This document shows positions 6,932 through 30,555 of a DNA stretch of 64,000 nucleotides, piece by piece. Position numbers and translations under genes: made by a program. The DNA comes from Vulcanimicrobiota bacterium (GTDB lineage Bacteria > Vulcanimicrobiota > Vulcanimicrobiia > Vulcanimicrobiales > Vulcanimicrobiaceae). Under the pieces are notes generated by a model. That model was not told the DNA's origin. It worked only from the letters and a program-made list of their open reading frames with translations, and did not search any database. The DNA lies in assembly GCA_963757945.1 (NCBI GenBank), contig CAVWTN010000002.1, forward strand, positions 1,606,974 through 1,670,973, read 5' to 3'. Positions within the stretch are counted from its first letter, which is position 1; each line of letters opens with the position of its first letter.

Positions 6932-6958
6932 TTAGTGAGGGCGTGAAAGGTCTCACGC

Positions 6959-10142: not shown

Positions 10143-10164
10143 AGAACAGAACGCGTCAATACAA

Positions 10165-10215: not shown

Positions 10216-10516
10216 GCGACTCAACCCAGACGCACGGTAAAACGTAGCATGGGGGAAAAGCGGTGTCAACAGAGACCAACCTGGGAGAGACGAGCCTGAA
10301 GCAGCTAGGCGATTTATGTGGATACATGCCCGCCTCTGTGCCCCGCTCGGGTGAAATGACGCCGCCGATGTGCCGCGCCGACCCAGCCGGGCCATTTCGG
10401 CTTGCTAGCCGCGCGCCTCGCCACGGCGATCACTAGATCTGGCGGCGGTGGAAACGGTTGGCCACGCTTGGGAAGCCCATGCCGACCGAAGGTCCACCTA
10501 CGGCCTCGGGAAGCTA

Positions 10517-11089: not shown

Positions 11090-12041
11090 TCAAGCCCCCG
11101 CACCGTGCGCTTGCAAGCACTTCCTTGAGAACGCCGTCAAGCAGCGTCCGTGCGCTGAGCCCGTCGATCCACGCCGCGGGGAAGGCCCCCAGTCCCGAGC
11201 GAGCGCCGACGATCGCGCCGGTGATCGATGCGATCGTGTCGGTATCGCCGCCGGAGGCCGCCGCGACGCCGATCGCCGCCACCGGATCGCCGGCGAAGCA
11301 CGTCGCGATGGCATCCGCGGCGGCAACCGTTTCCCACGCGCTCATCGCCACGTTGCGCAGCCGGCTCGGCAAACGCAGCCCGGACGGCGCGAGATCGCGG
11401 TGCAAGTCGTGCCACGCTTTGACGAACGTCGCATCGACGATACCGGCGGGGACATCCAGCGACGCTTCCACGCCGTGCAGCGCGTCATGCACGATCGCCG
11501 CTTGGGCCGCGGCTGCGGCGATCGCGGCCGGATGCCCATGCGTCACGCGCGCTTGCACCGCCGCAACCTCGAGCACTGTATCGCGATCCGCGAGAAACCC
11601 GACCGGGTGGACGCGCATCGCCGTTCCGTTGCCGCCATCCTCGGGGTGACCGCACGTTGCGGGATCCGCCCCTCGCCCCAGACGCGCGAGCGAGCGCGTT
11701 GTGGCGCCGCCGGGCCCGCCGGTCCAAAACATCTCGCCGAACCGCCCGGTATGGCGATCGAGATCTTCCAGGAAGCGCTTGGCAAATAACCCGGCCGTCA
11801 ACGGCTCGCTGCTTGCAACCGCCGTTGCGACGGAAAGGGCCATCGCCGTATCGTCGGTCGGCCGGCCTGGTTCACGCGGGGACAAGAGCGAACCGGGCAT
11901 CGCTCGCAAGTATTCCCGTACGATGGGCTCACCGAGACGGCGCTCGATCGCGTCGCTATTGATCAATTCGAACGCCGACCCGAGAGCGTCGCCGATCGCG
12001 GCGCCGTACAGGCAGCCCGCGATGCGGTCGGCGCGCGTCAT
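11076..12041 (-). CDS. ADP-ribosylglycohydrolase (ARH/DraG family). The listed ORF extends to 12080.
   Basis: RIAGCLYGAAIGDALGSAFE, PTDDTAMAL, GGNGTAMRVHPVG and ASGGDTDTIASITGAIVGA are all ARH family signatures. The start at 12041 gives an ATGA overlap with the upstream gene. Confidence 0.9.
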   Translation of the reverse strand: MTRADRIAGCLYGAAIGDALGSAFELINSDAIERRLGEPIVREYLRAMPGSLLSPREPGRPTDDTAMALSVATAVASSEPLTAGLFAKRFLEDLDRHTGRFGEMFWTGGPGGATTRSLARLGRGADPATCGHPEDGGNGTAMRVHPVGFLADRDTVLEVAAVQARVTHGHPAAIAAAAAQAAIVHDALHGVEASLDVPAGIVDATFVKAWHDLHRDLAPSGLRLPSRLRNVAMSAWETVAAADAIATCFAGDPVAAIGVAAASGGDTDTIASITGAIVGARSGLGAFPAAWIDGLSARTLLDGVLKEVLASARCGGLSERV

Positions 12042-12502
12042 GCGGCTTCCGATGTTGAGAGCTTGCTCTCGAGCGCGCACAGCGTCTCGTCGCCGGAGAC
12101 GATGCGGAAGATCTTCGGATACTGTTCCTCGGCCGTCCAGTAGAAGAAGCCAAGAAGATTTCCGAGGACCGACGCGTCGAGATGCTCCGCCCGATAGTCG
12201 ATCTCAAGGACCAGGCCGTCCGGCCTGACCGCGAACTTCGCGACCATCATCGCCGTGTTCGCGCGCATCGTCGCTTCGAAGAGCTGCGCCCGCAGGCCGG
12301 CTTCCTCGGGGACGTTGCAGACGACGGTGGAGATGTGCAGCCAGTCCGCGGTCAACGCCGCGACGATGAACCATTGCCGCGTACGGCCGTGGTAGGAGAG
12401 GCCGCGGCGCACGGGATCGAGGCGAAACGATGCGAGGCCGGCTTCCTTCATCAGGGTCTTGAGCCGCGCCGAGGCTTCGGGTTGTGGATTCTTGTCTTCC
12501 AT
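12038..12502 (-). CDS. YbjN-like (putative sensory transduction regulator / T3SS-chaperone-like fold) protein.
   Basis: A 154-aa acidic protein. FRLDPVRRGLSYHGRTRQWFIVAAL...LVLEIDYRAEHLDASVLGNLLGFFYW resembles the YbjN family. It is the first gene of a three-gene minus-strand operon. Confidence 0.5.
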   Translation of the reverse strand: MEDKNPQPEASARLKTLMKEAGLASFRLDPVRRGLSYHGRTRQWFIVAALTADWLHISTVVCNVPEEAGLRAQLFEATMRANTAMMVAKFAVRPDGLVLEIDYRAEHLDASVLGNLLGFFYWTAEEQYPKIFRIVSGDETLCALESKLSTSEAA

Positions 12503-12566
12503 ACCGATAGTGTAGGTGAATGTGCACCAAGGCGTCAGTCGGTCAGTTGCCGGCCCGGGTCAGAAT

Positions 12567-13565
12567 ATGACCCACCCCCCTCGCGCCGCGCACGGGGGAA
12601 AAGTCGAGCGCTTCGTCTCGGTCATTCGCATCCTCGAGCAGGATCGCAAGATCACGAAGAAGCGCATCTACGAGTTGTTTGGCGTCAAGTCCGAGAGTTC
12701 GTTCAAGCGCATCAAAGCGCAGCTTGCGTACGCCGGGCTGCCGATCAGCTACGATCCGGACGACAAACACTTTCACGTTCCGCCGGGCGCTTCGATCGCG
12801 CGCTATGGCATCGATCCGCGCACGCGCGTGCAGCTCGCGCAAGTTCGCGCCGCGATCTCGGCGCTCGGCGGCCCGATCTCCGAAGCGCTCGACGACGTGC
12901 TGGAAGCCCTCGACGCGCGCATCGCGATCGGCGATTGGGACGGGACGGCCGTCGTCTCCTCGCGCCATCCGCAGCCGCGCGGCGGGCCGGCCTTTTTCGA
13001 AACGCTCGACCGCGCGCTTTCGGCGCTACGCGAGCATCGCTGGCTTTCGTTCACGTATAGCCGCAGCGACGGTTCCCACGCCGATCGCCGCACCGTCGCG
13101 CCGTACGCCGTGCACACGCACAACGGGCGCTATTATCTCTGGGGCTTGACGGAAGGCGAGCTGGAGCCGAAGCTCTACGTGCTCGATAGCGTGAGCGATG
13201 CGACGATCGAGGACGACACGTTCGTTCCCGATCCGGGGCTCAGTCTCGACGATGCCTTGCGCTACAGCTTCGGCACGATGATCGGCGACGGCAGCCCGCA
13301 GCGCGTCGTCGTGCGGATCGAGCCGGCGGCGGCCGCCTTCGTGCGCTGCCGCCAATGGCCGGCGGAAGTCGAAACCGCCGACGAGCCCGACGGCTCCGTG
13401 CGCCTGACGTTCGAACTCACGCGCTTCGCGGAGATCGTCGGCTGGGTCCTGAGCTTCTGCGGCGCCGCCACGATCGTCAGCCCGCCGGAGGCGCGAGCCG
13501 AGCTGCACGCGGCCGCCGTGCGCGCTGCTGAGGCGTCGGCGGACGCGATCGAGGCCCTCGGCTAG
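12567..13565 (+). CDS. WYL-domain transcriptional regulator (HTH plus WYL plus C-terminal WCX-like domain). The start is chosen at ATG 12567; the listed ORF begins at 12516.
   Basis: N-terminal wHTH is VERFVSVIRILEQDRKITKKRIYELFGVKSESSFKRIKAQL. The WYL core is HADRRTVAPYAVHTHNGRYYLWGL. It is divergent from the ARH operon, with an intergenic gap of only about 65 bp. Confidence 0.8.
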   Translation: MTHPPRAAHGGKVERFVSVIRILEQDRKITKKRIYELFGVKSESSFKRIKAQLAYAGLPISYDPDDKHFHVPPGASIARYGIDPRTRVQLAQVRAAISALGGPISEALDDVLEALDARIAIGDWDGTAVVSSRHPQPRGGPAFFETLDRALSALREHRWLSFTYSRSDGSHADRRTVAPYAVHTHNGRYYLWGLTEGELEPKLYVLDSVSDATIEDDTFVPDPGLSLDDALRYSFGTMIGDGSPQRVVVRIEPAAAAFVRCRQWPAEVETADEPDGSVRLTFELTRFAEIVGWVLSFCGAATIVSPPEARAELHAAAVRAAEASADAIEALG

Positions 13566-14736: not shown

Positions 14737-15342
14737 CTACGCGGTGACGGTCGCGTGCGCGGGGATGCGCAGCTTCACTTCGCCGAAGACGATCTCGGGC
14801 GGATGCGCGAGCAGGCTTCCGAGGTTCTTGTCGGCCCACGCGCGCGCCCGTTCCCGCGCGGTTTTCGCGGACTCCTCATCCGCGAACACGAGCAGCCAGG
14901 AGAGGGCTCCGTGGCCGGCGTCGATCGCGCCGTGCGCGGCGTACCCGGGCAGCTCGGCGATCGTCGGGATGTAGCCTTCGACGATCCGCTTCTTCGCTTC
15001 CTCAACCTCGCCCGGCTTCGTCGCAAGGTGCCACACGAATCCGTGGCCGGAGTGTACGTGCTCCTTGACGTCGCGGAACGCGACCGGACCTTCGCTGATC
15101 TTGGGGTGGCCGAGCTCCGTCGCTGCTTGATTCTCACGGACCCAACCCGCGGCGAGTTCGGCCCCCAGCTCGTCGTCGAAGACGCTTGCGGTGACCACGC
15201 CGTCCGGTCCGGCGTCGATCAGCGTCCACGAGACGAAGCCCCAAGCGTGGCTGATCGGGTGCATGAAGCGCTCGCGCGTATGACGGACGATCGCATCGAT
15301 CTGCCCGGGCTCGGTCTTGTAGTGTCGGACAACTCCAAACAT
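14737..15342 (-). CDS. Hypothetical protein, 201 aa, possibly with two small alpha+beta (ABM/Dabb-like) halves.
   Basis: An uninterrupted ORF with protein-like composition and high GC3. No firm family assignment. Confidence 0.45.
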   Translation of the reverse strand: MFGVVRHYKTEPGQIDAIVRHTRERFMHPISHAWGFVSWTLIDAGPDGVVTASVFDDELGAELAAGWVRENQAATELGHPKISEGPVAFRDVKEHVHSGHGFVWHLATKPGEVEEAKKRIVEGYIPTIAELPGYAAHGAIDAGHGALSWLLVFADEESAKTARERARAWADKNLGSLLAHPPEIVFGEVKLRIPAHATVTA

Positions 15343-15558
15343 CCAAAACCGCCTTTCACGCCGTGCTCACGCGGCGCTTCACGAACTTTTCGCGACCTCG
15401 CGAACCCGCCCCCGTCGGGTGGCGCCGACGCGCAGGCGATCGCCCCTCGCCGCCCTTCGGCAAGTATTTCTCGGCAAGTGGCTAGCATGACGCGATGGGC
15501 GGGTGGAGAGGCATTGACCTGCGATGCAATTCTGCCCCAAGCGAGGTATGATCCGGAC

Positions 15559-16125
15559 ATGTCTACCGCGGCCGAGCGGCTCCACCGGATTACGACGGAC
15601 ATCTACGAGCGCATGGCCGCCGGCGGCTTGTTGCCCGAGGGTGGCATCGAGCTCATCGATGGCCTCGTTGTCGAGATGAGCCCCAAAGGTGACCGGCACG
15701 CCTATGCGGTCACCCGCCTGAACGAGCTACTCGTCGACCAGCGCCGGGGGCGCTACGCCGTGTATGCCGACAGCCTGAGCCTGCGCCTCGGGCCGCGCGA
15801 CGAGCCGGAGCCCGATATCGCCCTGGCTCGGACGACCCGAAGCTATGCGCGCGAACGGCCGCGTCCCGACGAGATCGCGCTGATCGTGGAAGTCGCTGAT
15901 TCGTCCCGCGCGTTCGATCTCGGTGAGAAGCGCGCCAAGTACGCCGCCGCCGGGATTCCGGAATACTGGGTCGTCGACTTGCAACGAAACGCGGTCAACG
16001 TCTTTCGGAGTCCGCGCGGCGACCGCTACGTCGATGCGCGCGTGGCGAAATCCGGTGAGGCAATCGCTCCAGTGGAGTTTCCCGACGTCGCCGTCGACGT
16101 CGCGCTCGTGCTCGGGGAATCGTAG
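15559..16125 (+). CDS. Uma2-family (DUF820, PD-(D/E)XK) endonuclease.
   Basis: MSTAAERLHRITTDIYERMAAGGLLPEGGIELIDGLVVEMSPKGDRH ... PDIALIVEVADSSRAFDLGEKRAKYAAAGIPEYWVVD. The listed ORF 14755..16125 carries a long antisense N-terminal extension, which is rejected. Confidence 0.8.
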   Translation: MSTAAERLHRITTDIYERMAAGGLLPEGGIELIDGLVVEMSPKGDRHAYAVTRLNELLVDQRRGRYAVYADSLSLRLGPRDEPEPDIALARTTRSYARERPRPDEIALIVEVADSSRAFDLGEKRAKYAAAGIPEYWVVDLQRNAVNVFRSPRGDRYVDARVAKSGEAIAPVEFPDVAVDVALVLGES

Positions 16126-16159: not shown

Positions 16160-17056
16160 TTACTTCAGCGCTTCGATGGTCCAGCCGCTCACGTTGACGT
16201 ACGGCACGTTCTCGAGCGAGATCGAGCGGGTCTCGACGAGCGAGAGCCGTTCGAGCGCTGCGTGACGCACGCGGCCGTCGACGCTGACCGCGACCGTCAA
16301 TTGCTGGCGCGCGGTGCCGCCGCGGAAAGAGTCGCCGGCCGGCGCGGCATCGCCGCCGCCACTCTGAGGGCCGGCGCCTTCAGGCGGGCCTCCGCCGGGG
16401 AAACCGCCGCCTCCGGGAAAGCCCCCGCCGAAGCCGCCTCTGGTGTGAAAGCCGCCTTGCCGCGATCCGTCGCCGAGCGACGAGCCGCCGGCAGGCTGCT
16501 GCGCTTGAACGAGAACCTGCCCTGCACCGCGCAGGTCGTAATCTGCGCCGGATGCGTTGGTCACGGTCAGCGGGACGATGACTTCCGTTGCCGCGCGGCG
16601 CTCGCCGGGAACCGTCAGCGTTGCGCTCCAGCCGTCATGCGTCGCCGGCTCGTTTGCGAAAAGCTCCGTCAGCCGATTGATTCCTTCGATTGCGTCGCGC
16701 AAGGCGGCGTTTTGGTTCGCGCTTCGATCGTTCTTCGGAATCTCCAAACGGCCGTCGGGCGCCACGTTGAGCACCGTCAGATCGGGCGGGAGTCCGCCGT
16801 AGGAGCCGTCGAGCGCAAGCGTCGACGGCGACTTGCGCCGCAACGTGACATCGGCGACCGAGGTCTGCGGTCCGGCAAGACTCTGCGTCGTGCGCGTGAT
16901 GCGATAGTGCAGCGTCGCGCCGGTCGGCGGGATCACGGACGGCGCGTCGGCGAACGCCGGAGCGGCCCACGCCGCGGCGCAGAGCGCCGCGGCAAATGCC
17001 GCCGGCGCAGGCGAAAACGAAGCCGGCAGAAGCGCCGGCACGTGCTTGTGTCGCAT
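16160..17056 (-). CDS. Secreted hypothetical protein with a Gly-rich (GGF/GGFP) segment.
   Basis: Signal peptide MRHKHVPALLPASFSPAPAAFAAALCAAAWAAPAFA. There is a globular N-terminal region followed by a GGFHTRGGFGGGFPGGGGFPGGGPPEG low-complexity tract. The upstream part of the listed 16160..19381 ORF is antisense to the TIR-STAND gene and is rejected. Confidence 0.5.
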   Translation of the reverse strand: MRHKHVPALLPASFSPAPAAFAAALCAAAWAAPAFADAPSVIPPTGATLHYRITRTTQSLAGPQTSVADVTLRRKSPSTLALDGSYGGLPPDLTVLNVAPDGRLEIPKNDRSANQNAALRDAIEGINRLTELFANEPATHDGWSATLTVPGERRAATEVIVPLTVTNASGADYDLRGAGQVLVQAQQPAGGSSLGDGSRQGGFHTRGGFGGGFPGGGGFPGGGPPEGAGPQSGGGDAAPAGDSFRGGTARQQLTVAVSVDGRVRHAALERLSLVETRSISLENVPYVNVSGWTIEALK

Positions 17057-17128
17057 AGCGGCACTGTAAGCGCTTAGTCTTACAAGCGGCTTGGAAAGGC
17101 CGGCTCCTGCGCCTGGTATGATGGTGCC

Positions 17129-19789
17129 GTGATCTTCATCAGCCATTCCAGCCTCAATAATGAAAAAGCGATCGCCGTGCGCGATTGGCTCGTTGAGCAA
17201 GGCTGGGGGGCGTCGCGGATCTATCTCGATCTTCAGAACATCCACGCGGGCGAGCGCTGGCGCGAAGCGCTCAACGACATCGGCTCGAACTGCGAGGCGG
17301 TCATCGCGTGCCTTTCCGATGACTGGTTGCGTTCGCCCGAATGCTTGCGCGAATTCAATCAGGCCGAGGCGACCAGCAAGCCGATCTTCCCCGTCGTCGT
17401 CGCGCCGATCACCGAGCGCATCCCGCGCTTCATCACGGACCTGCAGTTCGCCGACATCAGCGACCCGGCGTTGCAGGCCGAGGGCTTCGAAAGCCTCCGG
17501 CGCGGACTCTTGGCGGCGCGCATCGTTCCGGATGACCCTTCGGCCGCTTCCGACGGAAAGTCCGCGCAGGCGCGCGCTGCCGCCCGTTTCGCCACGAACT
17601 TGCCCAAACAAGTCTCGAGCTTCGTCGGGCGCGAGAGCGTCGTCGCGGAAATCGAAACGCTGTTGCAAGACGCGCGCCTGGTCACGCTGTTCGGCGCGGG
17701 CGGCCTCGGCAAGACGCGCTGCGCTCAGGAGTTGGGCGCGCGCTTGCTGGAGCAGTTCGACGGCGGCGTGTGGTTCGTCGATCTCGCGCCCTTGCGCGAT
17801 CCGGCGCTCGTCGCAAGCGAGATCGCGACCGCGTGCGGCGTTCGCGAAGCGCCGGGAAAATCGATGCTCGACGCGCTGACCGCGCACCTGGAACGCAAAC
17901 GCACGTTGCTGCTGCTCGACAATTGCGAACACGTCGTCGCGGAGGCCGCGAAGACGGCGGCCGCGGTCCTCGCGGCCTCGGCAAACGTCAAGATCGTCGC
18001 GACGAGCCGCGAGCTCCTGAAGGTCGTGGGCGAGGCCGTCTATCAGATGCCGACGCTCGCCGTGCCGGAACGCAGCAAGCACCTCGCGCCGGAGAGCGCG
18101 CTGACGTACGGCGCCGTCGAGCTCTTCCACGATCGCGCGCGCGCCGCGAACCGCGCGTTTCGGCTGACCGCGGACAATACGCCGGTCGTCGCCGAGATCT
18201 GCGCCCGGCTCGACGGCATTCCGCTTGCGATCGAACTCGCCGCCGCGCGGATGCGGATGCTCTCGCCGAACCAACTCGCAAAGCAGCTCGACGAACGCTT
18301 TCGCGTGCTCACGGGCGGCGACCGCACGGCACTGCCGCGCCAGCAGACGATGCGGGCGCTCATCGATTGGAGCTACGATCTGCTCTCCGCGCAAGAGCAG
18401 CGGCTCTTCCGCGACATCTCGGTCTTCGCGGGCAGCTTCTCGTTTCAAACCGCCTGCGTAGTTTGCGCGAACGCCGAGACGAGCGAACTCGACGTGCTCG
18501 ACGTGCTCTCGTCGCTCGTCGACAAGTCGCTCGCGGTCGCGGAACCTTCGGATTCGGACGCGCGATGTCGCGTGCTCGAATCGATCCGCGAATACGGCCG
18601 CGAGAAATCGATCGCAGCCGGTGAGGCCGCTGATGTTTCCGGGCGCCACGCGGCGGCCTACGCGGAACTCGCCGAACGGCTCGAACGCGAGTACGAAGAG
18701 TTGCCTTACGAGCTGTGGCTCGAGCAGACCGCGAGCGAAGTCGAGAACGTGCTTGCCGCGCTCGCATGGTCGTTCGGCGGTTCGGGCGACGTGCTGGTCG
18801 GGCAGCGGCTCGCCGCGACGCTGCGCCGCGTGCTCGTCGCGTTCAGAGCCGCAGAAGCGCGCCGCTGGGTCGCGACGGCGCTCGAAGCGGTCACGCCTGC
18901 CACGCCGCAGCCGGTGATCGGACGACTCGAACTCGCCGAAGCGACGCTCGCCTCGACGATGAGCCAGGTGCGTCCGGCCCTCGCCGCGGCGCAACGCGCG
19001 CTCGCGATCTTCGAGGGGCTGCGGGACGCGCGCGGGGTCGCCAACGCCCAGCGTTGGGCGGGGCGTTCCCTCATGCTCGTCGGCGAGATCGACGAAGGCG
19101 CGGCGTTGCTCGAGCGATCCCTCGCGACGCTTCGGGGCCTGGGCTTTCGGCGCGCCGGCGGCATCTTGCGCGACCTCGGCACGGCGCGCGCGCTGAAGAC
19201 CGACGTCGCCGGGGCCCGCGTGCTCTTCGCGCAGGCGCTCGCGAGCTTCAAGGAGAGCGCCGACGACTACAACATCGCGGTGACGGCTGGGACGCTCGCC
19301 GACGCGGAGTTCCGCTGCGGCGATGCGCGGGCGGCGCTCGTCGCTGGCTTGGAAGGGCTCGAAGCGGCGCGCGCGCGGCATCTCGAGTCGAGCGTGCTCA
19401 TGTGGCTGTTGTGCAATCTGGCCGCGTTCAGCCTCGAGCTAGGGCAGTACGACGACGTGCGCGCGTACGCGCACGAACTGCTCGCGCTGCGGCTCGATGC
19501 GCCCAGCGACATCGACGTCGCGTTCGCGTTGCAGCATCTCGCGGGCGTCGCCACGCTGCGCGAGCCGCCGGAGCCCGGGAGCCTGCGGCTCGCGGCGACG
19601 CTGCTCGGCTTCGTCGATGCGCGGCTCGCGGCGCTCGGCGTCGATCGCGAATACACGGAGCAACATCTCTACGATAAGATCCAGGCTGTCTTACGCAGCG
19701 CACCGGACGAGAACGCGCACGGCGAACCCGCCAGCGCGAACGGCGCGCTCAACGAAGAGGCCGCGGTCGCGCTCGCGCTGACGATCTGA
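17129..19789 (+). CDS. TIR-NB-ARC-TPR protein (STAND NTPase with N-terminal TIR domain).
   Basis: TIR: MIFISHSSLNNEKAIAVRDWL...AVIACLSDDWLRSPECLREF. P-loop: VTLFGAGGLGKTRCAQELG. Walker B: LLLLDNCEHVV. Further NB-ARC motifs: IVATSRELL and GIPLAIELAA. The C-terminal about 350 aa hold TPR-like helical repeats. GTG start. Confidence 0.85.
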   Translation: MIFISHSSLNNEKAIAVRDWLVEQGWGASRIYLDLQNIHAGERWREALNDIGSNCEAVIACLSDDWLRSPECLREFNQAEATSKPIFPVVVAPITERIPRFITDLQFADISDPALQAEGFESLRRGLLAARIVPDDPSAASDGKSAQARAAARFATNLPKQVSSFVGRESVVAEIETLLQDARLVTLFGAGGLGKTRCAQELGARLLEQFDGGVWFVDLAPLRDPALVASEIATACGVREAPGKSMLDALTAHLERKRTLLLLDNCEHVVAEAAKTAAAVLAASANVKIVATSRELLKVVGEAVYQMPTLAVPERSKHLAPESALTYGAVELFHDRARAANRAFRLTADNTPVVAEICARLDGIPLAIELAAARMRMLSPNQLAKQLDERFRVLTGGDRTALPRQQTMRALIDWSYDLLSAQEQRLFRDISVFAGSFSFQTACVVCANAETSELDVLDVLSSLVDKSLAVAEPSDSDARCRVLESIREYGREKSIAAGEAADVSGRHAAAYAELAERLEREYEELPYELWLEQTASEVENVLAALAWSFGGSGDVLVGQRLAATLRRVLVAFRAAEARRWVATALEAVTPATPQPVIGRLELAEATLASTMSQVRPALAAAQRALAIFEGLRDARGVANAQRWAGRSLMLVGEIDEGAALLERSLATLRGLGFRRAGGILRDLGTARALKTDVAGARVLFAQALASFKESADDYNIAVTAGTLADAEFRCGDARAALVAGLEGLEAARARHLESSVLMWLLCNLAAFSLELGQYDDVRAYAHELLALRLDAPSDIDVAFALQHLAGVATLREPPEPGSLRLAATLLGFVDARLAALGVDREYTEQHLYDKIQAVLRSAPDENAHGEPASANGALNEEAAVALALTI

Positions 19790-19845
19790 CGCTTGAGACC
19801 GAGATGAACCGGGTCGCGCTCGTGCTGACGATGTAACGCGCGAGG

Positions 19846-21402
19846 TTAGTGGACCGGGATCGTATACGTCGTCGAGCGCAGCAGCGGCCCGTCCGTCTCC
19901 GTCACCGTGACGGTGCAGTTCGTACCCGAGCTGCCGCTGATCAGGTCGAATTCGACGTATGGTCCCACGGCGTGGAACAGCGCGTGCGTCGACGTTCCCG
20001 AGCTGACGGGCGGGCTCTCCTGCGGACCGCCCGGATCTTTGTAGATCGGGGGCGGCGGCGGAACGTCGCCGTTCTCGTCGGGGCCGTTGTTGACCAGACA
20101 CGAACCGGCCGACGTATCGACCGAGAAACCGCCGCAGATCGCGGGCGCGATGCACGTGCCCGGGACCGCCGTATAGGTCGCGTCGTCCGCGACGAGCAGT
20201 TCCACCGCGTGATGCGCCGGCACCGACGTCGCGGACGGAGCGGGCGACGCCGCAGGGTTGGCGTTGCTGTTGCAGTTGGTGCCGCTCGCCGCGGCGACGC
20301 AGAGCTGCAAATCGGCGACGTTCCCGACGATCACGTTTTGAATCACCGGCACGGTGAATGACGGCGTGACGCACGTCGTCGTTCCGCTCGCCGCGCAGAG
20401 CTGTTCGGACGACGGCCCGTCGAGACCGATGAAGACGCGGTCCGGCGCCGGAGCCCCGACCGTGAACGTGACGGTCGGCGCACCGAACAAGACCGATGCC
20501 GAATCGACGGTGCCGAGCTGGCAATAGAACGACGGAATGCCGAGGATGACGGCGCCGCTCAGCGCCGGAGCGAGCACGTGCCCGACATATGCGGGGAAGC
20601 ACGCCGAGGAGAACATCGTGCCGCCGCCGCCGGTGTTCGCGTAATTCACCACGAGGCTCGACGGCAGCGTCGGCGCGTTCGAGGTGAGCACCGTGTTCGA
20701 TCCGGGGACGATCGGCAAGCCGACTTCGCTCGTCGAATCCTCGGGGATGATGCTGATCTCGGTCTTCGTACGCGGCGGCAGCGTGATGCTCGCAACGTCG
20801 GAGGTGAACGTGATCGAATGCCCGGATGCCGTGACGTCGCCGATCTTCAGCGACGAGACGGTCGCCGGTACGGGCTTCAGTTGAAAGAAGCTCACGCCGA
20901 AGAGCGTTCCGTCGACGCTGCATGGGACGTGCGCGGAGAAACCATCGACGCGCAGCGTGATCGGAAAGGGGAACGGGTTGTACAGCGGAATCGCAAACGT
21001 CGCCGGGCACGTGCGAGGATGATTCCATTGCGCGTGCAGCGACCCGCCCGAAGCAACGGAACCTTGAGGCTGACGGACGCCCAGCAGCAGCTTCGTGCCG
21101 GCCGGCACGTTCGTCGCGTGCACGGTCAGGTTCGCGCTGTACCCGCCCGCCAGCGGGATCGCAAAGGAGCTCGGCCTCGCGGAGAGCGCGGCGCTGACCG
21201 TGGCCTCGCCGCTCTCCGGGCCGGCGGCCGGGTCGACCTGCGGCTGTTGCGCCGGCACGGCGGCCGGCTGCTGCACCGGAGCGGCCGGCTGCGCGGGCAG
21301 CATGGCGCTGGGCTGCTGCATCGAGCTCTGACCGCTACAAGCCCCGAGTGCGAGCGCAATCGACATCAGCGCCGATAGTCCGAGCAAGCGAATAGCGGAC
21401 AT
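19846..21402 (-). CDS. Secreted lipoprotein with a Pro/Gln-rich linker and a Thr/Ser/Gly-rich beta domain.
   Basis: MSAIRLLGLSALMSIALALGACSG signal plus lipobox. The linker is QPAAPVQQPAAVPAQQPQVD. Confidence 0.55.
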   Translation of the reverse strand: MSAIRLLGLSALMSIALALGACSGQSSMQQPSAMLPAQPAAPVQQPAAVPAQQPQVDPAAGPESGEATVSAALSARPSSFAIPLAGGYSANLTVHATNVPAGTKLLLGVRQPQGSVASGGSLHAQWNHPRTCPATFAIPLYNPFPFPITLRVDGFSAHVPCSVDGTLFGVSFFQLKPVPATVSSLKIGDVTASGHSITFTSDVASITLPPRTKTEISIIPEDSTSEVGLPIVPGSNTVLTSNAPTLPSSLVVNYANTGGGGTMFSSACFPAYVGHVLAPALSGAVILGIPSFYCQLGTVDSASVLFGAPTVTFTVGAPAPDRVFIGLDGPSSEQLCAASGTTTCVTPSFTVPVIQNVIVGNVADLQLCVAAASGTNCNSNANPAASPAPSATSVPAHHAVELLVADDATYTAVPGTCIAPAICGGFSVDTSAGSCLVNNGPDENGDVPPPPPIYKDPGGPQESPPVSSGTSTHALFHAVGPYVEFDLISGSSGTNCTVTVTETDGPLLRSTTYTIPVH

Positions 21403-21625
21403 GGAGAGCCTCCAGCCGTTAGGTGTTCGAGCGCGATTCCTGAGGAGCGCCTAAATCGCCTCCGCGAGCCGAGTAGGCCTTTTGGCCCGCGCCCTTCTCT
21501 CGAAGGCTGGGCAAGTCTACGGCCGCCCGAGGATCGTCGCCGCCGAACGCGGTGCTCCTGAGAGCGTCTAACGGCGTGGTATGCTTTGCGCCTTACGTCT
21601 GTCCGCATGCTTGCAGAGGATGTGA

Positions 21626-23248
21626 TTGGTGAAGTTGGCGTCTGGAATTCCACTGCTCATCGGCGTCAGCGGCCATCGGCACTTGGGGGGCGGCGAGAAC
21701 GTCGCCGAGGTCCGCGCGCGCGTCGAGCGGTTCTTCGAGATGCTGCGGCGGCAATATCCGAACACGGAGCTGGTGCTCTACAGCGGCCTCGCGCGCGGAG
21801 CCGATCAGCTCGCTGCCGAGGTCGCGCTCGCGCGCGGGATCGCGCTCGTGGCCGTGCTTCCGATGCCGCGGGAACTGTACGAGGAAGAGTTTCCCGGCCC
21901 CGAATTGCCCCGCTTTCGCGAGATCCTCGCGCAGGCCGAGCGAGTCGTCGAACTCCCGTTGCTCTCGGGCACGACGCCCGAGGACATTCGCTCCGATCCC
22001 GGCAGAGCGGGCCTAGCGGCGCAAGAGCAATACGCGGCGCTGAGCGACTTCCTGGCCGTTCGCACGCAATTGCTGCTCGCGCTCTGGAACGGCGTTCAGA
22101 GCACGGCGCTCGGCGGCACCGCGTGGACGATCCGAGCGAAGCTCAGCGGAAGGCTGCGCGCCGATGCCGAGCGTTTGGATCCGATCGACTTGGGGCTCGT
22201 GTACGTAGTTCCCGCCGCGGGCGAGGCGCCGTCGACCGCGCCGTTACCGCGCGAAGGTTTCGTCGCCGGAGATACGATCGAACCGTACCTCGCAGCGCTG
22301 CGCGACATCGACGTCTACAACGCGCATCTCGAGGATTCGGCGCGGCGGCCGGACGCATTGGCGGAGGCTCGCGACACCGCCGACGCGCTCGCGGTTCGCT
22401 ATCACCGGATGCTCGCGCGTACGCGGAACATCCTCGCGCTCTTGGTGTTGACGCTGGTGCTGATGTTCGGCATCTATTCGGAACTCGCGCGCACGCCTCT
22501 CGTATTGTTGATCTATCTCGCGACGCTGGTCGTCGGCGCAGGCATTTGGACCTGGCAACGCCGCGCTCATATCGAAAAGCGCTTCTTCGAGTATCGGGCG
22601 CTGGCCGAAGCGCTGCGCATCCAGCACGTGTGGTTATCGAGCGGCCTGCCGCATTCCGTCGAAGACTCGTATCTGCGCAAGCACGCGGGCGAACTGCACT
22701 GGATCCGCTTGGTGCTGCGTGGGTACGCGACCGATAGCGACATCGTCGCCGCGCTCGCCGTGCGCCGCGCGGCCCGGCCGGTTCCGGGGCGGCCCGAGGA
22801 TTATCCCGCGGCGCGTCAGTGGATCGTGGAACAATCCGCCTACTTTCAAAGCGGCGCCGTGCGCAGAACGCGCGCCGTCAAACGCTTGCGCTCGTTGGCG
22901 CGCATTCTCTACGGCGCGGGCGTCGTAGCGGCGGCCGGAACGGCCGTTGCCGGCTATCTGGAAGCGGCGCCCGCCATCGAGCATGCCTTGGTGTTCGCGA
23001 TGGCCGTCGCGCCGGCGTCTGCCGGCATCATCCTTTCATGGATCGAGCAGACGGGTATCGAAGACGAGGCCCGTCAAACGACACGGATGGCACGACTGTT
23101 CGAAAGCGCCCGGCTCGATTGGGAAGCGCATCCGACGCTGCGTACCGCGCTGATGAGCGAACTCGGCAAAGAAGCCGTCTACGAAAACGCCGATTGGCTC
23201 CTGATGCACCGCTCCCGCCCACTGGAAGCCCCGCTGAGCCCGGGGTGA
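21626..23248 (+). CDS. SLOG (LOG/DprA-like Rossmann) domain protein fused to a C-terminal multi-TM (SLATT/DUF4231-like) region.
   Basis: N-terminus: LLIGVSGHRHLGG...ELVLYSGLARGADQLAAEVALARGIALVAVLPMP (compare DprA SGLArGIDaaAH and the LOG GGGxGLMG...GGxVxGViP pattern). Predicted TM helices are NILALLVLTLVLMFGIY, PLVLLIYLATLVVGAGIWTW, ARILYGAGVVAAAGTAVAGYL and ALVFAMAVAPASAGIILSWI. Confidence 0.55.
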   Translation: MVKLASGIPLLIGVSGHRHLGGGENVAEVRARVERFFEMLRRQYPNTELVLYSGLARGADQLAAEVALARGIALVAVLPMPRELYEEEFPGPELPRFREILAQAERVVELPLLSGTTPEDIRSDPGRAGLAAQEQYAALSDFLAVRTQLLLALWNGVQSTALGGTAWTIRAKLSGRLRADAERLDPIDLGLVYVVPAAGEAPSTAPLPREGFVAGDTIEPYLAALRDIDVYNAHLEDSARRPDALAEARDTADALAVRYHRMLARTRNILALLVLTLVLMFGIYSELARTPLVLLIYLATLVVGAGIWTWQRRAHIEKRFFEYRALAEALRIQHVWLSSGLPHSVEDSYLRKHAGELHWIRLVLRGYATDSDIVAALAVRRAARPVPGRPEDYPAARQWIVEQSAYFQSGAVRRTRAVKRLRSLARILYGAGVVAAAGTAVAGYLEAAPAIEHALVFAMAVAPASAGIILSWIEQTGIEDEARQTTRMARLFESARLDWEAHPTLRTALMSELGKEAVYENADWLLMHRSRPLEAPLSPG

Positions 23249-23254
23249 GGAGCC

Positions 23255-25971: not shown

Positions 25972-27222
25972 ATGAGAAGGCCGGTCTCCAATCGGGATCG
26001 CTTCTGTAACGAAGCCCCGGACGCACTCGAGGTGCAAGGAAGGAGACCGACCTTCATGACCAAGCATACCAAAGCCCAAGGAAAAGCCAAGTCCCCGACC
26101 CCGAACTCGCCGACGATGAGAACAGGAGTCTCCTACCAAGCAAGCAAGGCCGACGCTGCCGGGTCTTCCGGGCGCCTGACGATCGGGCTGGATTTAGGCG
26201 ATCGTTCCACGGCGTACTGCATGCTCGACGCTGACGGACAGATCTTGGCCGAGGGAAAGTTCAAGACGGTGCGGGCGGCGATCGATCAACAGTTCGGCCG
26301 CCTTGCGCCGGCACGCATTGCGTTGGAAGCCGGCACGCACTCCGGATGGATCAGCCGTTTGATCGAATCGCACGGTCATGACGTGATCGTCGCCAACCCC
26401 CGCGAGGTGCGCAAGATCTACCAGAACGACCGCAAGAACGACCGCAACGACGCGCGGATTCTGGCACGCTTAGCCCGTGTCGATCCGCAGTTGCTCGCGC
26501 CCATTCACCACCGTGATGCGAAGATGCAGGCCGACCTTGCGACCATCCGAACTCGGGACACGCTTGTGGCGGCGCGGACCAAGTGCGTCAACGCGATGCG
26601 CGGTCTGGTGAAGTCGCTAGGCGGGCGACTGCCCAAGTGCAGCACCGAAAGCTTTTGCAAGCGTGTCGGCGCAGCTATCCCGGCGGATCTGGAAACGGCT
26701 TTGCGCCCCCTGATCGTAACCATCCAGACCCTCAACGAGCAGATCCGCGGCTGTGACAAGCAGATCGAGACGCTCGCGGAGCAAACCTATCCTCAGACGG
26801 CACTGCTGCGCCAGGTCGGCAGCGTCGGGGCGCTTACGTCCACAGCGTTTATCCTCACGATCGCCGACGAAAAACGCTTCACGAAGAGCCGCGAGGTCGG
26901 TCCCTTTTTGGGATTGGTTCCCCGACAAGACGATTCCGGCGAGCGCAGCTCACAACTACGCATCACCAAGACCGGTAACGCCTACCTGCGACGACTCTTG
27001 GTTGGAAGCGCCCAGTACATCTTGGGGCCTTTCGGACCCGACACCGACCTCCGTCGCTACGGTGAACGGCTGATGCAGCGCGGCGGCAAGAACGCCAAGA
27101 AGCGCGCTGTCGTCGCGGTGGCGCGCAAACTTGCCGTGCTCTTGCACCGGCTGTGGGTCACCGGCGAAGCATACGAGCCCCTGCGCAACTCCAAGCATCC
27201 GGAGCCGATGGAAGCGGCGTAA
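25972..27222 (+). mobile_element. IS110-family insertion sequence. The ends are not defined, as IS110 elements lack classical IRs.
   Basis: Contains the IS110 transposase gene. Confidence 0.6.
26056..27222 (+). CDS. IS110-family transposase (DEDD).
   Basis: LTIGLDLGDRSTAYCMLD, N-terminal RuvC-like DEDD start. The C-terminal region reads ...RLLVGSAQYILGPFGPDTDLRRYGERLMQRGGKNAKKRAVVAVARKLAVLLHRLW. An AGGAG SD lies upstream of ATG 26056. Confidence 0.85.
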   Translation: MTKHTKAQGKAKSPTPNSPTMRTGVSYQASKADAAGSSGRLTIGLDLGDRSTAYCMLDADGQILAEGKFKTVRAAIDQQFGRLAPARIALEAGTHSGWISRLIESHGHDVIVANPREVRKIYQNDRKNDRNDARILARLARVDPQLLAPIHHRDAKMQADLATIRTRDTLVAARTKCVNAMRGLVKSLGGRLPKCSTESFCKRVGAAIPADLETALRPLIVTIQTLNEQIRGCDKQIETLAEQTYPQTALLRQVGSVGALTSTAFILTIADEKRFTKSREVGPFLGLVPRQDDSGERSSQLRITKTGNAYLRRLLVGSAQYILGPFGPDTDLRRYGERLMQRGGKNAKKRAVVAVARKLAVLLHRLWVTGEAYEPLRNSKHPEPMEAA

Positions 27223-28572: not shown

Positions 28573-30555
28573 TCAGGCGCCGGCGGCGTCCGCTCGGCCG
28601 CCGCCGATCTCCGCCGGGCATCCGGCACCGTTCGTCCAGACGACGACGCCCTTCGGCATGTTCCCGGTGGCCGCGCGCAGGATGCCGGCGACCGGCGATT
28701 GCGGGTCGCGGATCGTGATGACCAGCGTGTGGACCGCGCGCGTCAGCGGGATCATCAGCCAGCGGCGCGCGACCGTCGCCGGATCGCCGTGCTGTTCGTC
28801 GGGATGGAAGTTCGGATGGCGCAACCTGTTCGCGTAGAAATCGTCGAGATCGAGCGCAAGTGCGATCCAGCCTTCCAGCCCGCGGCACGAATCGTACTGG
28901 ACGATCCGCCACAGATCCTTATCGGTGGGGGCCGTCCCGCGGGTTCCGGGATCGCTTGCATCCCATGCGCGTCCGCCTGCGGCCGCGACGACGTCGGCGA
29001 AGCGCGCGTGGCGCCGGCCGCCCGCCTCTTGCATGATATTCGAATGCGGCACGCACACCAGGCAATCGACCGGATCGGCGTTGCCCTCCCGCGCGGACGC
29101 GGCGATCGCCCGCACGAGTTCCGGCGAGGCGACGTTGTCGCCGACGGCGATGATGATGCGTCCGCCGGGCAGATCGTCGCGAGGTTCGACATGCCAGCGC
29201 TCGAAGCCGGCCGCATCGGCGACGGCGTTCGCGAACAGCGCGACGTTGCGCTGCATGCGTAGTGAGTCCCCGAGCATCCGATTCACGCGCTCTTTGCTCG
29301 GGATCCCCGTCAGCCAATCGCACGGCGTTTGGCGCCGGACGAGCTGGTCGATCCCATCGGCGATCGTGATCCGGCAATGCCCGAAGAGGCGGAGCAAAAA
29401 GTCGCGCTCCGCGTCGGTCCAATCTTGCGCCTCGTCGATGAAGACGTGATCCCAGTCGAAGCGCGGCGGATCGCTCGCGCGCAGCAGGCTCGCCCATTCG
29501 CCGTCCGGGCCGCCGGCGAGCTTCGCGGTCGCCTCGCGCAGCGTGTCGTCGAGCTTCGCGAAGGCGATCGCGCCCTCGGGCGTCAACGGGATCTCGAACT
29601 CGAGCCCTCGGAGCGCGGCTAATAGGAACTCGGTCATCGTCTCGACGTGCAGGCGCGTTCCGAGGAGTGCCGGCTGATCGAGTGTGGTCCGCAGCAGATG
29701 CTCGATGTCGCCGCGCAGCGCGCGGTGGAACGTGAGCACGAGAACGCGCTCGCCGCGCATCGTCGCGAGTTCGCCGGCGAGGAGCGCGAGCACCGTCGTC
29801 TTGCCGCTCCCGCCGCGCCCCGCGAGCCGGATGAGTTTGCTGCCCGCCGATGCGGCGAGGTCTTTCACGAACTTTTGGCCGGCCTCATCCCGCGCGAAGC
29901 GTTCGCTACGGGCCTTGTCGCGCGAGCTGATCGCGCGGCGATTGAGCAGCAGCGCGCGAACGGCACGCACCCCTTCGCGCGTGCGCTCGTTGCCGGCTTC
30001 GGAGAGCACGTCGTGCTGCTGCGCGGCCGCGTCGAGCAGCTCGAACCAGCCCGCTTCGTGGCCGAGGACGCTGGAGCCGATCCCTTCGAGCGCGACTTCG
30101 TCGACTTCGGTCAGCCAGCCCAGGGCATGCACGAAGAGGCCGCCGCAGCCGTACCGCGCCGCGAACGTCTTGAGCGATTTCGCCGCATCGTCCGCTTGCG
30201 ATGCGACGCTCCGCCCTTCGAGGTGCGTCCCGTACCTCGCGAAGATCTGGTTTCCGATTCGTTCGAAACGCAGGCTGTCGAGCTGCTTGATCTCGATAGC
30301 GAGCAGGGCGCACTGGACGTGTCCGGGCGGCGACATCGTGCCGTCGCGACGCTTCACCGGCGGGATGCGGCGCGGGCTCGCAAGGTCGATCGCCACGACG
30401 ACGTCGATGTCGGCGGGCGTGCGGACCCCGACGAGGATGTCGATACGGTCCGTCTTGCTCGCCGCGACGTCGGGCCAGAGTTGCCGGATCTGCGCGACGA
30501 GCCGCTCGGCGACGGGCGTTTCGTTCTGCGGGGAGATGATGGTTAGGTCGATCAT
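28573..30555 (-). CDS. NERD-like nuclease domain fused to an SF1 (UvrD/AAA_11-12-like) helicase.
   Basis: N-terminus: IDILVGVRTPADIDVVVAIDL...VQCALLAIEIKQL (NERD/PD-(D/E)XK-like E-x-K). Walker A: IRLAGRGGSGKTTVLALL. Walker B/DEAQ: HVFIDEAQDWTDAE. C-terminal helicase motifs: ...VHTLVITIRD. Confidence 0.75.
   Translation of the reverse strand: MIDLTIISPQNETPVAERLVAQIRQLWPDVAASKTDRIDILVGVRTPADIDVVVAIDLASPRRIPPVKRRDGTMSPPGHVQCALLAIEIKQLDSLRFERIGNQIFARYGTHLEGRSVASQADDAAKSLKTFAARYGCGGLFVHALGWLTEVDEVALEGIGSSVLGHEAGWFELLDAAAQQHDVLSEAGNERTREGVRAVRALLLNRRAISSRDKARSERFARDEAGQKFVKDLAASAGSKLIRLAGRGGSGKTTVLALLAGELATMRGERVLVLTFHRALRGDIEHLLRTTLDQPALLGTRLHVETMTEFLLAALRGLEFEIPLTPEGAIAFAKLDDTLREATAKLAGGPDGEWASLLRASDPPRFDWDHVFIDEAQDWTDAERDFLLRLFGHCRITIADGIDQLVRRQTPCDWLTGIPSKERVNRMLGDSLRMQRNVALFANAVADAAGFERWHVEPRDDLPGGRIIIAVGDNVASPELVRAIAASAREGNADPVDCLVCVPHSNIMQEAGGRRHARFADVVAAAGGRAWDASDPGTRGTAPTDKDLWRIVQYDSCRGLEGWIALALDLDDFYANRLRHPNFHPDEQHGDPATVARRWLMIPLTRAVHTLVITIRDPQSPVAGILRAATGNMPKGVVVWTNGAGCPAEIGGGRADAAGA

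Follow-up and report, generated by a model that had tools for sequence, protein, structure and literature searches.

A SLOG domain fused to a SLATT-like four-helix membrane module as a candidate effector of TIR-STAND proteins

Among the systems described so far, the Thoeris systems come closest to the gene discussed here. In type I Thoeris, the SLOG domain of the SIR2-SLOG protein ThsA binds 3'cADPR. In type VII the signal is canonical cADPR, and models of the SLATT effector ThsH place the bound signal between protomers; for SLATT, a role as an effector that responds to nucleotides and forms pores has been predicted. 'SLOG and 4TM' (or '4TM SLOG') is also listed as a putative Thoeris effector in Tables S1-S2 of a 2025 preprint (Yirmiya et al., bioRxiv 10.64898/2025.12.03.692087), and according to the same source two cloned systems of this kind gave no defence in E. 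coli MG1655. Since the class is already listed and its two representatives were without defence, the gene described below is, as far as the material of the preprint goes, an example of and an addition to a class that is predicted to be of Thoeris type, not verified.

The gene is found in a 64,000-nucleotide stretch of Vulcanimicrobiota DNA, i.e. the whole stretch analysed here, which we call the window. The features referred to in the text are the following, residue numbers being those of the 539-aa SLOG-4TM protein.

17127..23249, + strand: three-gene cassette (TIR-STAND, lipoprotein, SLOG-4TM), from blastn against an Eremiobacterota MAG
17129..19789, + strand: partner TIR-NB-ARC/STAND-TPR gene, 886 aa, from Pfam matches
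19846..21402, - strand: intervening predicted lipoprotein gene, 518 aa, lipobox LALGAC, from the translation
21629..23248, + strand: SLOG-4TM gene, 539 aa from GTG 21629 (540 aa from the alternative TTG 21626)
21650..22324, + strand: SLOG domain, residues 8-232, YpsA/DprA-like by its motifs
22355..22639, + strand: predicted SLATT-like unit 1, residues 243-337, from secondary structure, hydropathy, profiles and hhalign
22565..22723, + strand: cytoplasmic juxtamembrane block, residues 313-365, the best-conserved cytoplasmic juxtamembrane stretch, from alignments
22805..23128, + strand: predicted SLATT-like unit 2, residues 393-500, from secondary structure, hydropathy, profiles and hhalign
23144..23227, + strand: C-terminal cytoplasmic motif, residues 506-533, LGxEALxEN(A/G)DWLLxHRxRPLE, from alignments

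An open reading frame at 21626-23248 had been reported by an earlier reading of the sequence (the original prediction), and the ORF list, the translation and the public gene calls agree with it. The public calls give an identical 539-aa protein (P0001) starting at GTG 21629, a Shine-Dalgarno-like AGAGGA (21615-21620) is located 8 nt upstream of this codon, and the stop codon is at 23246-23248 (ORF list and translation). The two motifs quoted at the time, GVSGHRHLGG and LYSGLARGADQLAAEVALARGIALVAVLP, are both present in the translation. Hydropathy analysis gives four transmembrane segments (~267-287, ~290-310, ~423-444 and ~451-472) that form two hairpins with outer loops of 3-6 residues and K/R-rich cytoplasmic flanks, and a helical cytoplasmic segment of ~110 aa (hydropathy and secondary structure) separates the hairpins, as had been foreseen. 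No signal peptide was found in the protein, and a sequence search against solved structures returned no match.

The N-terminal domain has the Rossmannoid alpha/beta fold of DprA, LOG, YpsA and MCP, and its strands lead at their C-terminal ends into glycine-rich loops, as is typical of the SLOG superfamily. The first loop (G12-x-x-G15-H16) follows strand 1 and the second (G162-G163-T164) precedes a helix; the loop glycines, G162 and G163 included, are kept in at least 90% of the family members, while H16, G57, D59, P78, W153 and T164 are family-invariant pocket residues. The invariant G57-A-D59 corresponds to the GxD/E signature of the YpsA clade, which is predicted to bind substrate (PMC6459960). 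YpsA is also the best structural match. B. subtilis YpsA (PDB 2nx2), the founding member of this clade, is small, soluble and without membrane module or TIR partner, and has been connected with cell division and with oxidative stress (PMC6459960). The closest folds are YpsA, DprA and ShosA, and TRPM structures appear among the weak fold matches through the TRPM SLOG-like domain.

LOG enzymes carry the catalytic motif PGGxGTxxE with its catalytic glutamate. In the target this stretch is G162-G163-T164-A-W-T-I-R, in the family consensus GGTAxxVxF; the glutamate is absent and no acidic residue is found there. With the GxD present and the LOG glutamate absent, the domain is, judged by its motifs, YpsA/DprA-like rather than LOG-like, so that from the LOG/DprA-type signature originally proposed the SLOG fold and the likeness to DprA stand, and the likeness to LOG does not. 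It has to be considered whether the SLOG domain could be a membrane-tethered enzyme, for instance an N-glycosidase like LOG or a hydrolase that degrades the signal, instead of a ligand sensor. We think this very improbable, as the LOG glutamate has no counterpart, the nearest folds (YpsA, DprA, ShosA) are non-catalytic binders, and conservation peaks in the juxtamembrane helices, a pattern in keeping with signal transmission. The scenario that the original prediction had set against itself, an ordinary LOG enzyme bearing a signal peptide, is excluded by the four transmembrane helices, the lack of a signal peptide and the missing catalytic glutamate.

Pfam and NCBIfam place a sub-threshold YAcAr/DprA match at residues 30-81. 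Pfam YAcAr (PF10686) scores 24.4 bits against a gathering cut-off of 28.2, and 13 of 80 family members match it at E<=0.01; on these scores the protein is a remote relative outside the coverage of this model. PADLOC matches raised the question of Shosta/Psyr membership, which we rejected: the ShosA match is confined to residues 41-81, i.e. to 40 residues of the SLOG core, and there is no ShosT partner beside the gene, where Pfam and PADLOC scans of the neighbouring ORFs found no PRTase. ShosA itself (DprA-like; PDB 8zva) has no transmembrane module.

The membrane part is, according to the profile and helix comparisons, made up of two tandem SLATT-like units. In unit 1 a long pre-TM helix is followed by TM1, TM2 and an amphipathic post-TM helix, and two sub-threshold matches cover it (DUF4231 at 256-333; NCBIfam SLATT_3 at 251-330). 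Unit 2 has the same order, i.e. a pre-TM helix, which carries the invariant W398, then TM3, TM4 and a post-TM helix, and is matched by Pfam SLATT_1 (400-501, E 0.016) and NCBIfam SLATT_1 (418-502, E 0.0025). All of these scores are under the respective cut-offs (Pfam SLATT_1 15.7 vs 26.3 bits; DUF4231 10 vs 24.7; NCBIfam SLATT_1 17.8 vs 41). The matches recur across the family at E<=0.01, DUF4231 in 32, SLATT_3 in 21 and SLATT_1 in 16 of 80 members, with a best E of 3e-7, and in hhalign the entire 4TM module is related to a free-standing protein scoring above the Pfam SLATT_1 threshold (92.6% probability, E 4.6e-7). The profile check proposed earlier, against DUF4231/SLATT and DprA, thus gives sub-threshold yet correctly placed matches (YAcAr/DprA 30-81, DUF4231/SLATT_3 251-333, SLATT_1 400-502), and together with the family-wide matches and the hhalign link it supports the SLOG plus SLATT(DUF4231) class. 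SLATT modules are associated with SLOG or with nucleotide-generating (SMODS/TIR) genes; in the present protein the module shares one chain with SLOG, and a TIR gene is present within 2.5 kb in 65% of the loci.

Mean column conservation is 0.71 in the juxtamembrane block and 0.72 in the C-terminal motif, as compared to 0.58 in the SLOG domain. The consensus of the block is DYRALAEGLRVQFFW...YLRKQ..EL.WIR, with R323, E327, R330 and W358 invariant; the invariant residues of the C-terminal motif are G513, E519, W523 and R528. The invariant juxtamembrane motifs (YRALAExLR, WIR, ENxDWLLxHR) are mutagenesis targets for the transmission from SLOG to SLATT, and how a SLOG ligand acts on a SLATT hairpin is a question common to SLATT effectors in general.

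A word-indexed search found 20 matches and suggested a rare orphan family, a view that was overturned by an exhaustive profile search with 12,894 matches, of which 4,138 reach E<=1e-30. The profile search gives more than 4,000 clusters (50% identity) with the full architecture, from at least 472 species. Since the whole architecture is kept at ~30% identity across thousands of proteins, the combination of SLOG and 4TM is beyond chance. None of the family members exceeds the Pfam or NCBIfam thresholds.

The 17129..19789 gene, 1.8 kb upstream, and the preprint with its listing and failed test of the class had both been overlooked in the original prediction. The product of this gene has a TIR domain at residues 2-122 (nt 17132-17494), NB-ARC at 175-417 and TPR at 637-708, i.e. 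the Avs/STAND layout of an N-terminal TIR_2 (1.8e-16), a core matching AAA_22 (2.9e-10), NB-ARC (1.1e-8) and nSTAND1, and C-terminal TPR_12 repeats; none of the specific PADLOC Avs models matched it. Its candidate catalytic glutamate, E75 (nt 17351-17353, context S..W..S..C..E), is assigned by motif position rather than structure, and this column is invariant in 60 of 60 partner TIR domains, as one would expect of a Thoeris-type TIR, in which the glutamate is required to cleave NAD+.

The TIR-STAND gene and the SLOG-4TM gene delimit a cassette. According to blastn, window positions 17127-23249 correspond to positions 4993-11621 of an Eremiobacterota MAG locus (L001) with ~78% identity; the homology begins and ends exactly at the cassette ends, which fall at the start of the TIR-STAND gene and at the stop of the SLOG-4TM gene, and the flanking genes are unrelated. 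The 79% and the 53% homologues of SLOG-4TM both adjoin orthologous TIR-STAND partners, the latter directly and at 39% identity. The lipoprotein gene between the two is probably a passenger. Its product has no Pfam or PADLOC family; a 74%-identical copy is at the same position in L001, and the gene is absent from the locus of the 53% homologue (L004). It was rejected as a system component, given synteny in one close relative only. A promoter/terminator scan of the cassette found nothing above shuffled background. A 1,073-aa antisense ORF (16160-19381) without domain matches was discarded as a shadow ORF of high-GC sequence.

The linkage to TIR genes extends over the family. At 62 non-redundant genome loci a TIR gene is found within 500 bp in 28 cases and within 2.5 kb in 40, as opposed to 5 of 1,656 ORFs further away in the same survey, an enrichment of ~200-fold that holds across unrelated TIR architectures and phyla. 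Homologues of 79, 53, 36, 32, 31 and 29% identity each have an adjoining TIR gene, and the architectures vary (TIR-STAND-TPR, TIR-PDZ-Sel1, ThsB_TIR-TPR, a 404-aa TIR, TIR-cyclase-NACHT). Among Lysobacter, Dyella and Rhodanobacter homologues there are loci, such as L040, L045, L068 and L069, at which the TIR gene is the immediate neighbour. The TIR gene is thus genomically coupled to the putative effector gene as in Thoeris, although the two are not co-oriented operon neighbours.

We consider it fairly likely that the SLOG-4TM gene encodes the effector in a defence module that signals through TIR in the manner of Thoeris. In the proposed mechanism the TIR-NB-ARC-TPR protein would sense an invader via its TPR/STAND part and then oligomerise, whereupon its TIR domain would cleave NAD+ and free a small molecule derived from ADP-ribose. 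This molecule would bind the cytoplasmic YpsA-type SLOG crevice (H16, G57-x-D59, W153, G162-G163-T164), and the juxtamembrane helices and those at the C-terminus, all strongly conserved, may relay the signal to the pair of SLATT-like hairpins. These would change their arrangement or assemble into oligomers and so break through the inner membrane, leading to growth arrest or death of the infected cell.

Several observations speak against the Thoeris-like reading. In the window the two genes form no operon, being separated by 1.8 kb in which the lipoprotein gene lies on the other strand; ~35% of the family loci have no TIR gene within 2.5 kb, and none was detected in the ~6 kb flanks of those loci; nine loci, described below, lie among housekeeping genes; and there is the published negative defence test. 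In addition, TIR-STAND fusions are usually read as NAD+-depleting effectors, and the Thoeris survey deliberately left them out. The same points, except for the defence test and the housekeeping loci, favour the view that the TIR-STAND protein works on its own as an Avs-like, NAD+-depleting abortive-infection protein, and that SLOG-4TM is a separate sensor of some different or generic nucleotide cue (for example free ADPR, an NAD+ breakdown product or a signal made elsewhere in the genome), the two merely travelling together. STAND NTPases with a DUF4062 N-terminus, or with no recognised N-terminal domain, at some TIR-less loci fit this as well. Mere co-travelling is nevertheless unlikely in view of the ~200-fold enrichment over unrelated TIR architectures and phyla, the cassette boundaries and the retention of the pair at 53% (SLOG-4TM) and 39% (TIR-STAND) identity.

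A further possibility is a physiological nucleotide-gated channel or regulator, comparable to YpsA or to the ADPR-gated TRPM2, that was recruited to defence in some lineages only. All nine of the Ignavibacteriota, Kapaibacteria and Bacteroidota loci (9/9) lie among housekeeping genes (e.g. FBPase, ROK kinase, TonB-dependent receptor), and one clade stands alone in such surroundings; YpsA, the best structural match, is a non-defence protein (PMC6459960), the TRPM channels are among the weak fold matches, and the two systems cloned for the preprint showed no defence phenotype. On the other hand, the window lineage and most loci pair the gene with TIR or STAND immune-type genes, the window also carries WYL, Uma2/PDC-S03 and another STAND-like gene in the neighbourhood, and the other SLATT modules known belong to conflict systems; we regard the physiological role as quite improbable.

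Returning to the Thoeris-like effector, the likeness to '4TM SLOG' of Yirmiya et al. consists in a TIR gene next to a protein with SLOG and four TM helices that is predicted to answer a TIR-made signal, and it is drawn from the description of the effector. The part of the preprint available lists at least ~8 TIR entries in one TIR cluster, compared to thousands of clusters of the present family; according to an HMM of that cluster, its TIRs resemble the partner TIRs only at the generic TIR level, and the survey excluded AVAST (Avs) TIRs, Avs being STAND NTPases like the partner in the window. The exact Nitrospira and Streptomyces proteins, whose TIR domains served as queries, were not in the database searched; for the one homologue on a contig the neighbouring gene was uninformative, and the JGI scaffolds of the family loci shared no system with the supplement. 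ThsH of type VII Thoeris also combines a TIR partner with a SLATT-type membrane module as killing device, but it has no SLOG, whereas in the present family a single chain carries a separate SLOG domain as the putative sensor together with a pair of SLATT-like units.

TRPM2, a cation channel of eukaryotes that is gated by ADPR, carries a SLOG-like domain at its N-terminus, and in the plant TNL pathway a TIR signal leads to a membrane channel. The shared logic is that an NAD+-derived nucleotide, sensed by a Rossmannoid/SLOG-type domain, alters membrane permeability; the membrane parts are non-homologous, and the resemblance is one of function, not of membership. The partner in the window has the TIR-NB-ARC-repeat layout of plant TNLs. 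We tentatively speculate, with less confidence than for the effector role, that TNL-like bacterial receptors of this layout emit a signal that opens the SLOG-gated 4TM effector, rather than acting by NAD+ depletion alone, which would make the pair a prokaryotic counterpart of the plant TNL-signal-channel pathway and the family one of the most widespread receivers of TIR signals. On this speculation the family would have escaped notice because STAND-fused TIRs are left out of surveys and neither Pfam nor NCBIfam has a model that covers it, and the TIR-less members beside DUF4062-STAND or housekeeping genes would point to non-TIR signals.

If the module works as proposed, a SLOG-gated membrane effector joins the Thoeris repertoire, and STAND-fused TIRs can be signal generators, not only NAD+ drains. 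The practical value of the window copy is limited by its uncultivated, Eremiobacterota-like source and, as far as the preprint goes, by the class being already proposed and once tested without success. The family is large, phylogenetically broad and unannotated, and a profile for it would name thousands of 'hypothetical proteins'. No TIR fused to a family protein was seen among the top 150 relatives; the only long protein among them, P0021, has the layout SLOG-SLOG-4TM.

The first gene to describe is the SLOG-4TM gene itself, taken from the ORF list and its translation:

TTG 21626 or GTG 21629 to stop 23246-23248, + strand, SLOG-4TM ORF

The GTG start, which has an AGAGGA motif 8 nt upstream, is used in public gene calls and yields a protein of 539 aa (P0001); residue numbers refer to this form. 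The AlphaFold2 model, computed with an 18-member family alignment as input, is confident (mean pLDDT 85.3, pTM 0.82). In it an alpha/beta domain (residues 9-232) is followed by two long helices that each run into a hairpin (H243-286 with H290-313, and H393-444 with H448-475), a helical cytoplasmic stretch (315-381) lying between the two; a pair of helices forms the C-terminus. By Kyte-Doolittle hydropathy the protein has four hydrophobic segments (~267-287, 290-310, 423-444, 451-472) with outer loops of 3-6 residues and K/R-rich cytoplasmic flanks. The anatomy described in the original prediction, i.e. an alpha/beta domain followed by four transmembrane segments, is thus real, and both sequence strings quoted there occur in the translation.

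The N-terminal domain has sub-threshold Pfam matches to YAcAr ('YspA, cpYpsA-related SLOG', E 2.6e-5) and to DprA. H16, G57, D59, P78, W153 and T164 are invariant across the family and G162-G163 are kept in at least 90% of its members; these residues occupy the nucleotide-binding positions of a Rossmannoid fold. G57-x-D59 matches GxD/E, the predicted substrate-binding signature of the YpsA clade (PMC6459960). The domain belongs to the YpsA-like branch of the SLOG superfamily. That it is enzymatic seems to us very improbable. The LOG catalytic motif is PGGxGTxxE, with a catalytic Glu; the family reads GGTAxxVxF and has no counterpart to this Glu, so a LOG-type enzyme is unlikely. Assignment to Shosta was also rejected, as the ShosA PADLOC match spans 40 residues and Pfam and PADLOC scans of the neighbouring ORFs found no ShosT phosphoribosyltransferase. 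The same type of SLOG domain occurs on Caballeronia plasmids (NZ_CP049320.1 27480-27974) within 'DUF4231 domain-containing protein' annotations, and residues 3-169 share 32% identity with a SLOG domain from a 485-kb uncultured jumbo phage (LR745208.1 102672-103109).

In the membrane half, weak but correctly placed matches were found to DUF4231/SLATT_3 (251-333) and SLATT_1 (400-502), and these families were seen again in ten more members; at E<=0.01 DUF4231 matched 32, SLATT_3 21 and SLATT_1 16 of 80 members (best E 3e-7). One locus fetched around a family gene, L054, also contains a SLATT protein that lacks the SLOG domain:

L054 7693-8820, separated by 4 bp from the upstream family gene, DUF4231 + SLATT_1, the latter above the Pfam threshold

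In an hhalign comparison with this protein the family's 4TM module aligned in its entirety, across 247 columns (probability 92.6%, E 4.6e-7). In our reading the module consists of two SLATT-like units in tandem; SLATT membership of the target is supported at the profile-profile level, below curated thresholds. The sub-threshold but well-placed matches, their recurrence in the family and the hhalign result support the proposed SLOG plus SLATT(DUF4231) interpretation. Conservation is highest outside the transmembrane helices (mean column identity 0.35-0.41), namely in the C-terminal motif LGxEALxENxDWLLxHRxRP (0.72) and in a cytoplasmic block that follows TM2 (0.71; residues 313-365, consensus DYRALAEGLRVQFFW...YLRKQ..EL.WIR). 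What the original account lacked was the TIR-STAND partner, the true family size, and the earlier proposal and one unsuccessful test of the class.

A word-indexed search returned 20 homologues, suggesting a rare family; this was overturned when 1.84 billion representatives were searched exhaustively with a profile. Hits numbered 12,894 with E<=1e-3, of which 4,138 reached E<=1e-30, and the best 150 were all full-length. Scanning one genome per species for the motif [DE][YFA]RALAE[AG]LR confirmed at least 472 loci. Among the matches listed, the closest homologue is from Eremiobacterota (79% identity), and others come from Gammaproteobacteria (Steroidobacteraceae, Lysobacter, Dyella, Rhodanobacter), Ignavibacteriota/Kapaibacteria, Bacteroidota, Acidobacteriota, Chloroflexota, Planctomycetota and Firmicutes. 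No source checked gives these proteins a name. One member, P0021 (836 aa), has two tandem SLOG domains before the 4TM module, and three MAG contigs (L016, L050, L080) carry the family gene as two neighbouring ORFs, owing to a frameshift, pseudogenization or an assembly error.

Upstream of the SLOG-4TM gene lie two genes that form a cassette with it:

17129-19789, + strand, TIR-STAND partner, 886 aa: TIR_2 (residues 2-122), NB-ARC/AAA_22/nSTAND1, TPR_12
19846-21402, - strand, predicted lipoprotein gene, 518 aa: lipobox LALGAC; Pro/Ala-rich, Ser/Thr/Gly-rich

A domain search found no known domain in the predicted lipoprotein. An Eremiobacterota MAG locus, L001, has the same three genes, and homology (window 17127-23249 = L001 4993-11621, ~78% at the nucleotide level) runs from the TIR-STAND start to the SLOG-4TM stop. 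The genes that flank it in L001 (PHO4, a pyridoxal-dependent decarboxylase) bear no relation to those in the window (Uma2, FUSC_2/IS110), therefore the three genes are a unit found in different genomic contexts. The lipoprotein copy inside the L001 cassette (8228-9772) is 74% identical. Next to a 53%-identical homologue there is a directly adjoining, divergent TIR-STAND-TPR gene (39% identical) and no lipoprotein gene.

TIR genes were detected with our own HMM, built and iterated over 91 fetched loci. In the 62 non-redundant loci that extend 2.5 kb or more to either side of the family gene, a TIR ORF lies within 500 bp in 28 and within 2.5 kb in 40; farther than 2.5 kb, the background is 5 of 1,656 ORFs. 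The partners range from ~225-aa stand-alone TIRs through ~700-aa TIR-TPR proteins to TIR-STAND proteins, and all 60 of 60 partner TIRs have the catalytic-position Glu of the S..W..S..x..E motif (E75 of the window partner). Homologues of 29-36% identity adjoin TIR-PDZ-Sel1, ThsB_TIR-TPR, a 404-aa TIR protein or TIR-guanylate-cyclase-NACHT-FGE-sulfatase; another has a RyR-domain protein as its neighbour and a ThsB_TIR gene at a distance of 6.5 kb. The orthologous TIR-STAND of L001 (4995-8213) has an extra insert of ~175 aa between TIR and NTPase with a weak guanylate-cyclase match, and the partner at L011 3956-7834 is TIR + Guanylate_cyc + NACHT + FGE-sulfatase; therefore some partners combine two nucleotide-signal-generating domains. 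At L025 2862-7692 a 326-aa TIR gene stands between two paralogous SLOG-4TM genes on the same strand.

About a third of the loci have no TIR. All nine from Ignavibacteriota/Kapaibacteria/Bacteroidota have housekeeping neighbours, e.g. FBPase, ROK kinase, TonB-dependent receptor and AP endonuclease. These would suit a physiological nucleotide-gated membrane protein, a reading that the TIR linkage elsewhere in the family leaves rather improbable. Several other TIR-less loci encode STAND NTPases whose N-terminus is DUF4062 or has no recognised domain; large ones (NACHT or nSTAND1 + TPR or WD40) lie within ~2.5 kb:

L030, 2075-5110
L055, 485-4195
L067, 1-3483
L079, 2-3646
L080, 4943-8605

Two of these five have the DUF4062 N-terminus, and in L055, L067 and L079 one gene separates the NTPase from the family gene, as in the window.

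The best-supported reading of the SLOG-4TM gene with its TIR partner is, in our opinion, a Thoeris-like relay, which we hold to be reasonably probable. Infection would activate the TIR protein, in the window a STAND receptor; its TIR domain would turn NAD+ into an ADPR-derived signal that binds the SLOG domain, and the conserved juxtamembrane and C-terminal helices would pass the change to the SLATT-like hairpins, which would compromise the membrane. Our observations cover the architecture, the pattern of conservation and the linkage of the genes; each biochemical step we infer by analogy with type I Thoeris, whose SLOG domain binds 3'cADPR, with type VII Thoeris, which has a SLATT effector and canonical cADPR as signal, and with the nucleotide-responsive, pore-forming role predicted earlier for SLATT. 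Against the relay, the two genes in the window form no operon, TIR-less members exist, TIRs fused to STAND domains are conventionally taken to deplete NAD+, YpsA and DprA resemble the SLOG domain more closely than ThsA does, and a published test was negative. The two genes might instead travel together with independent functions, as the missing operon and the TIR-less loci would allow; given the TIR enrichment next to the family and the conserved cassette we regard this as unlikely.

The genomic features are those of Thoeris, and function as Thoeris is predicted. A preprint (Yirmiya et al., bioRxiv 10.64898/2025.12.03.692087) includes '4TM SLOG' among 29 putative Thoeris effector types, with at least ~8 TIR entries in one TIR cluster (Table S1). 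Its authors cloned two such systems ('SLOG and 4TM') into E. coli MG1655, one originating from Streptomyces sp. GKU 895 and the other from Ca. Nitrospira nitrosa; both are marked 'No' for defence and have no type number. We tentatively equate our family with '4TM SLOG' on matching architecture and TIR adjacency, and the likeness of that TIR cluster, as tabulated, to our partners is generic only; the preprint's TIR-domain queries were not found in the protein database. That survey removed the TIRs of AVAST (Avs) proteins, a kind of STAND NTPase, so a TIR-NB-ARC-TPR partner like that of the window would probably have been discarded. In extent the family seems to go far beyond what the table in the preprint suggests. 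A literature search found no later paper validating the architecture. The class is thus predicted and experimentally unverified, the architecture would not surprise a specialist, and the STAND-type partner and three-gene cassette are modest variations. Worth an experiment are the breadth of the unannotated family and also the possible signalling from TNL-like bacterial receptors to a SLOG-gated membrane effector.

Three further genes upstream of the cassette suggest a loose defence island:

11076-12080, - strand, ADP-ribosylglycohydrolase
12516-13565, + strand, WYL-WCX regulator
14755-16125, + strand, Uma2-type putative restriction endonuclease, matching PADLOC candidate PDC-S03

The first, an ADPR-processing enzyme, is <10 kb from the cassette. 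Opposite the TIR-STAND gene, in antisense, runs an ORF of 1,073 aa with an ATG start (16160-19381, - strand); it has no domain match and is most likely a high-GC shadow ORF rather than a gene. About 2.7 kb downstream of SLOG-4TM lies an IS110-family transposase (25972-27222, + strand; DEDD_Tnp_IS110 + Transposase_20), where GC dips locally to 0.61 vs ~0.67. Farther on, a 660-aa ORF (28573-30555, - strand) has a weak, sub-threshold nSTAND_NTPase5 match (E 6.6e-6) and may be a second STAND-like gene of the neighbourhood.
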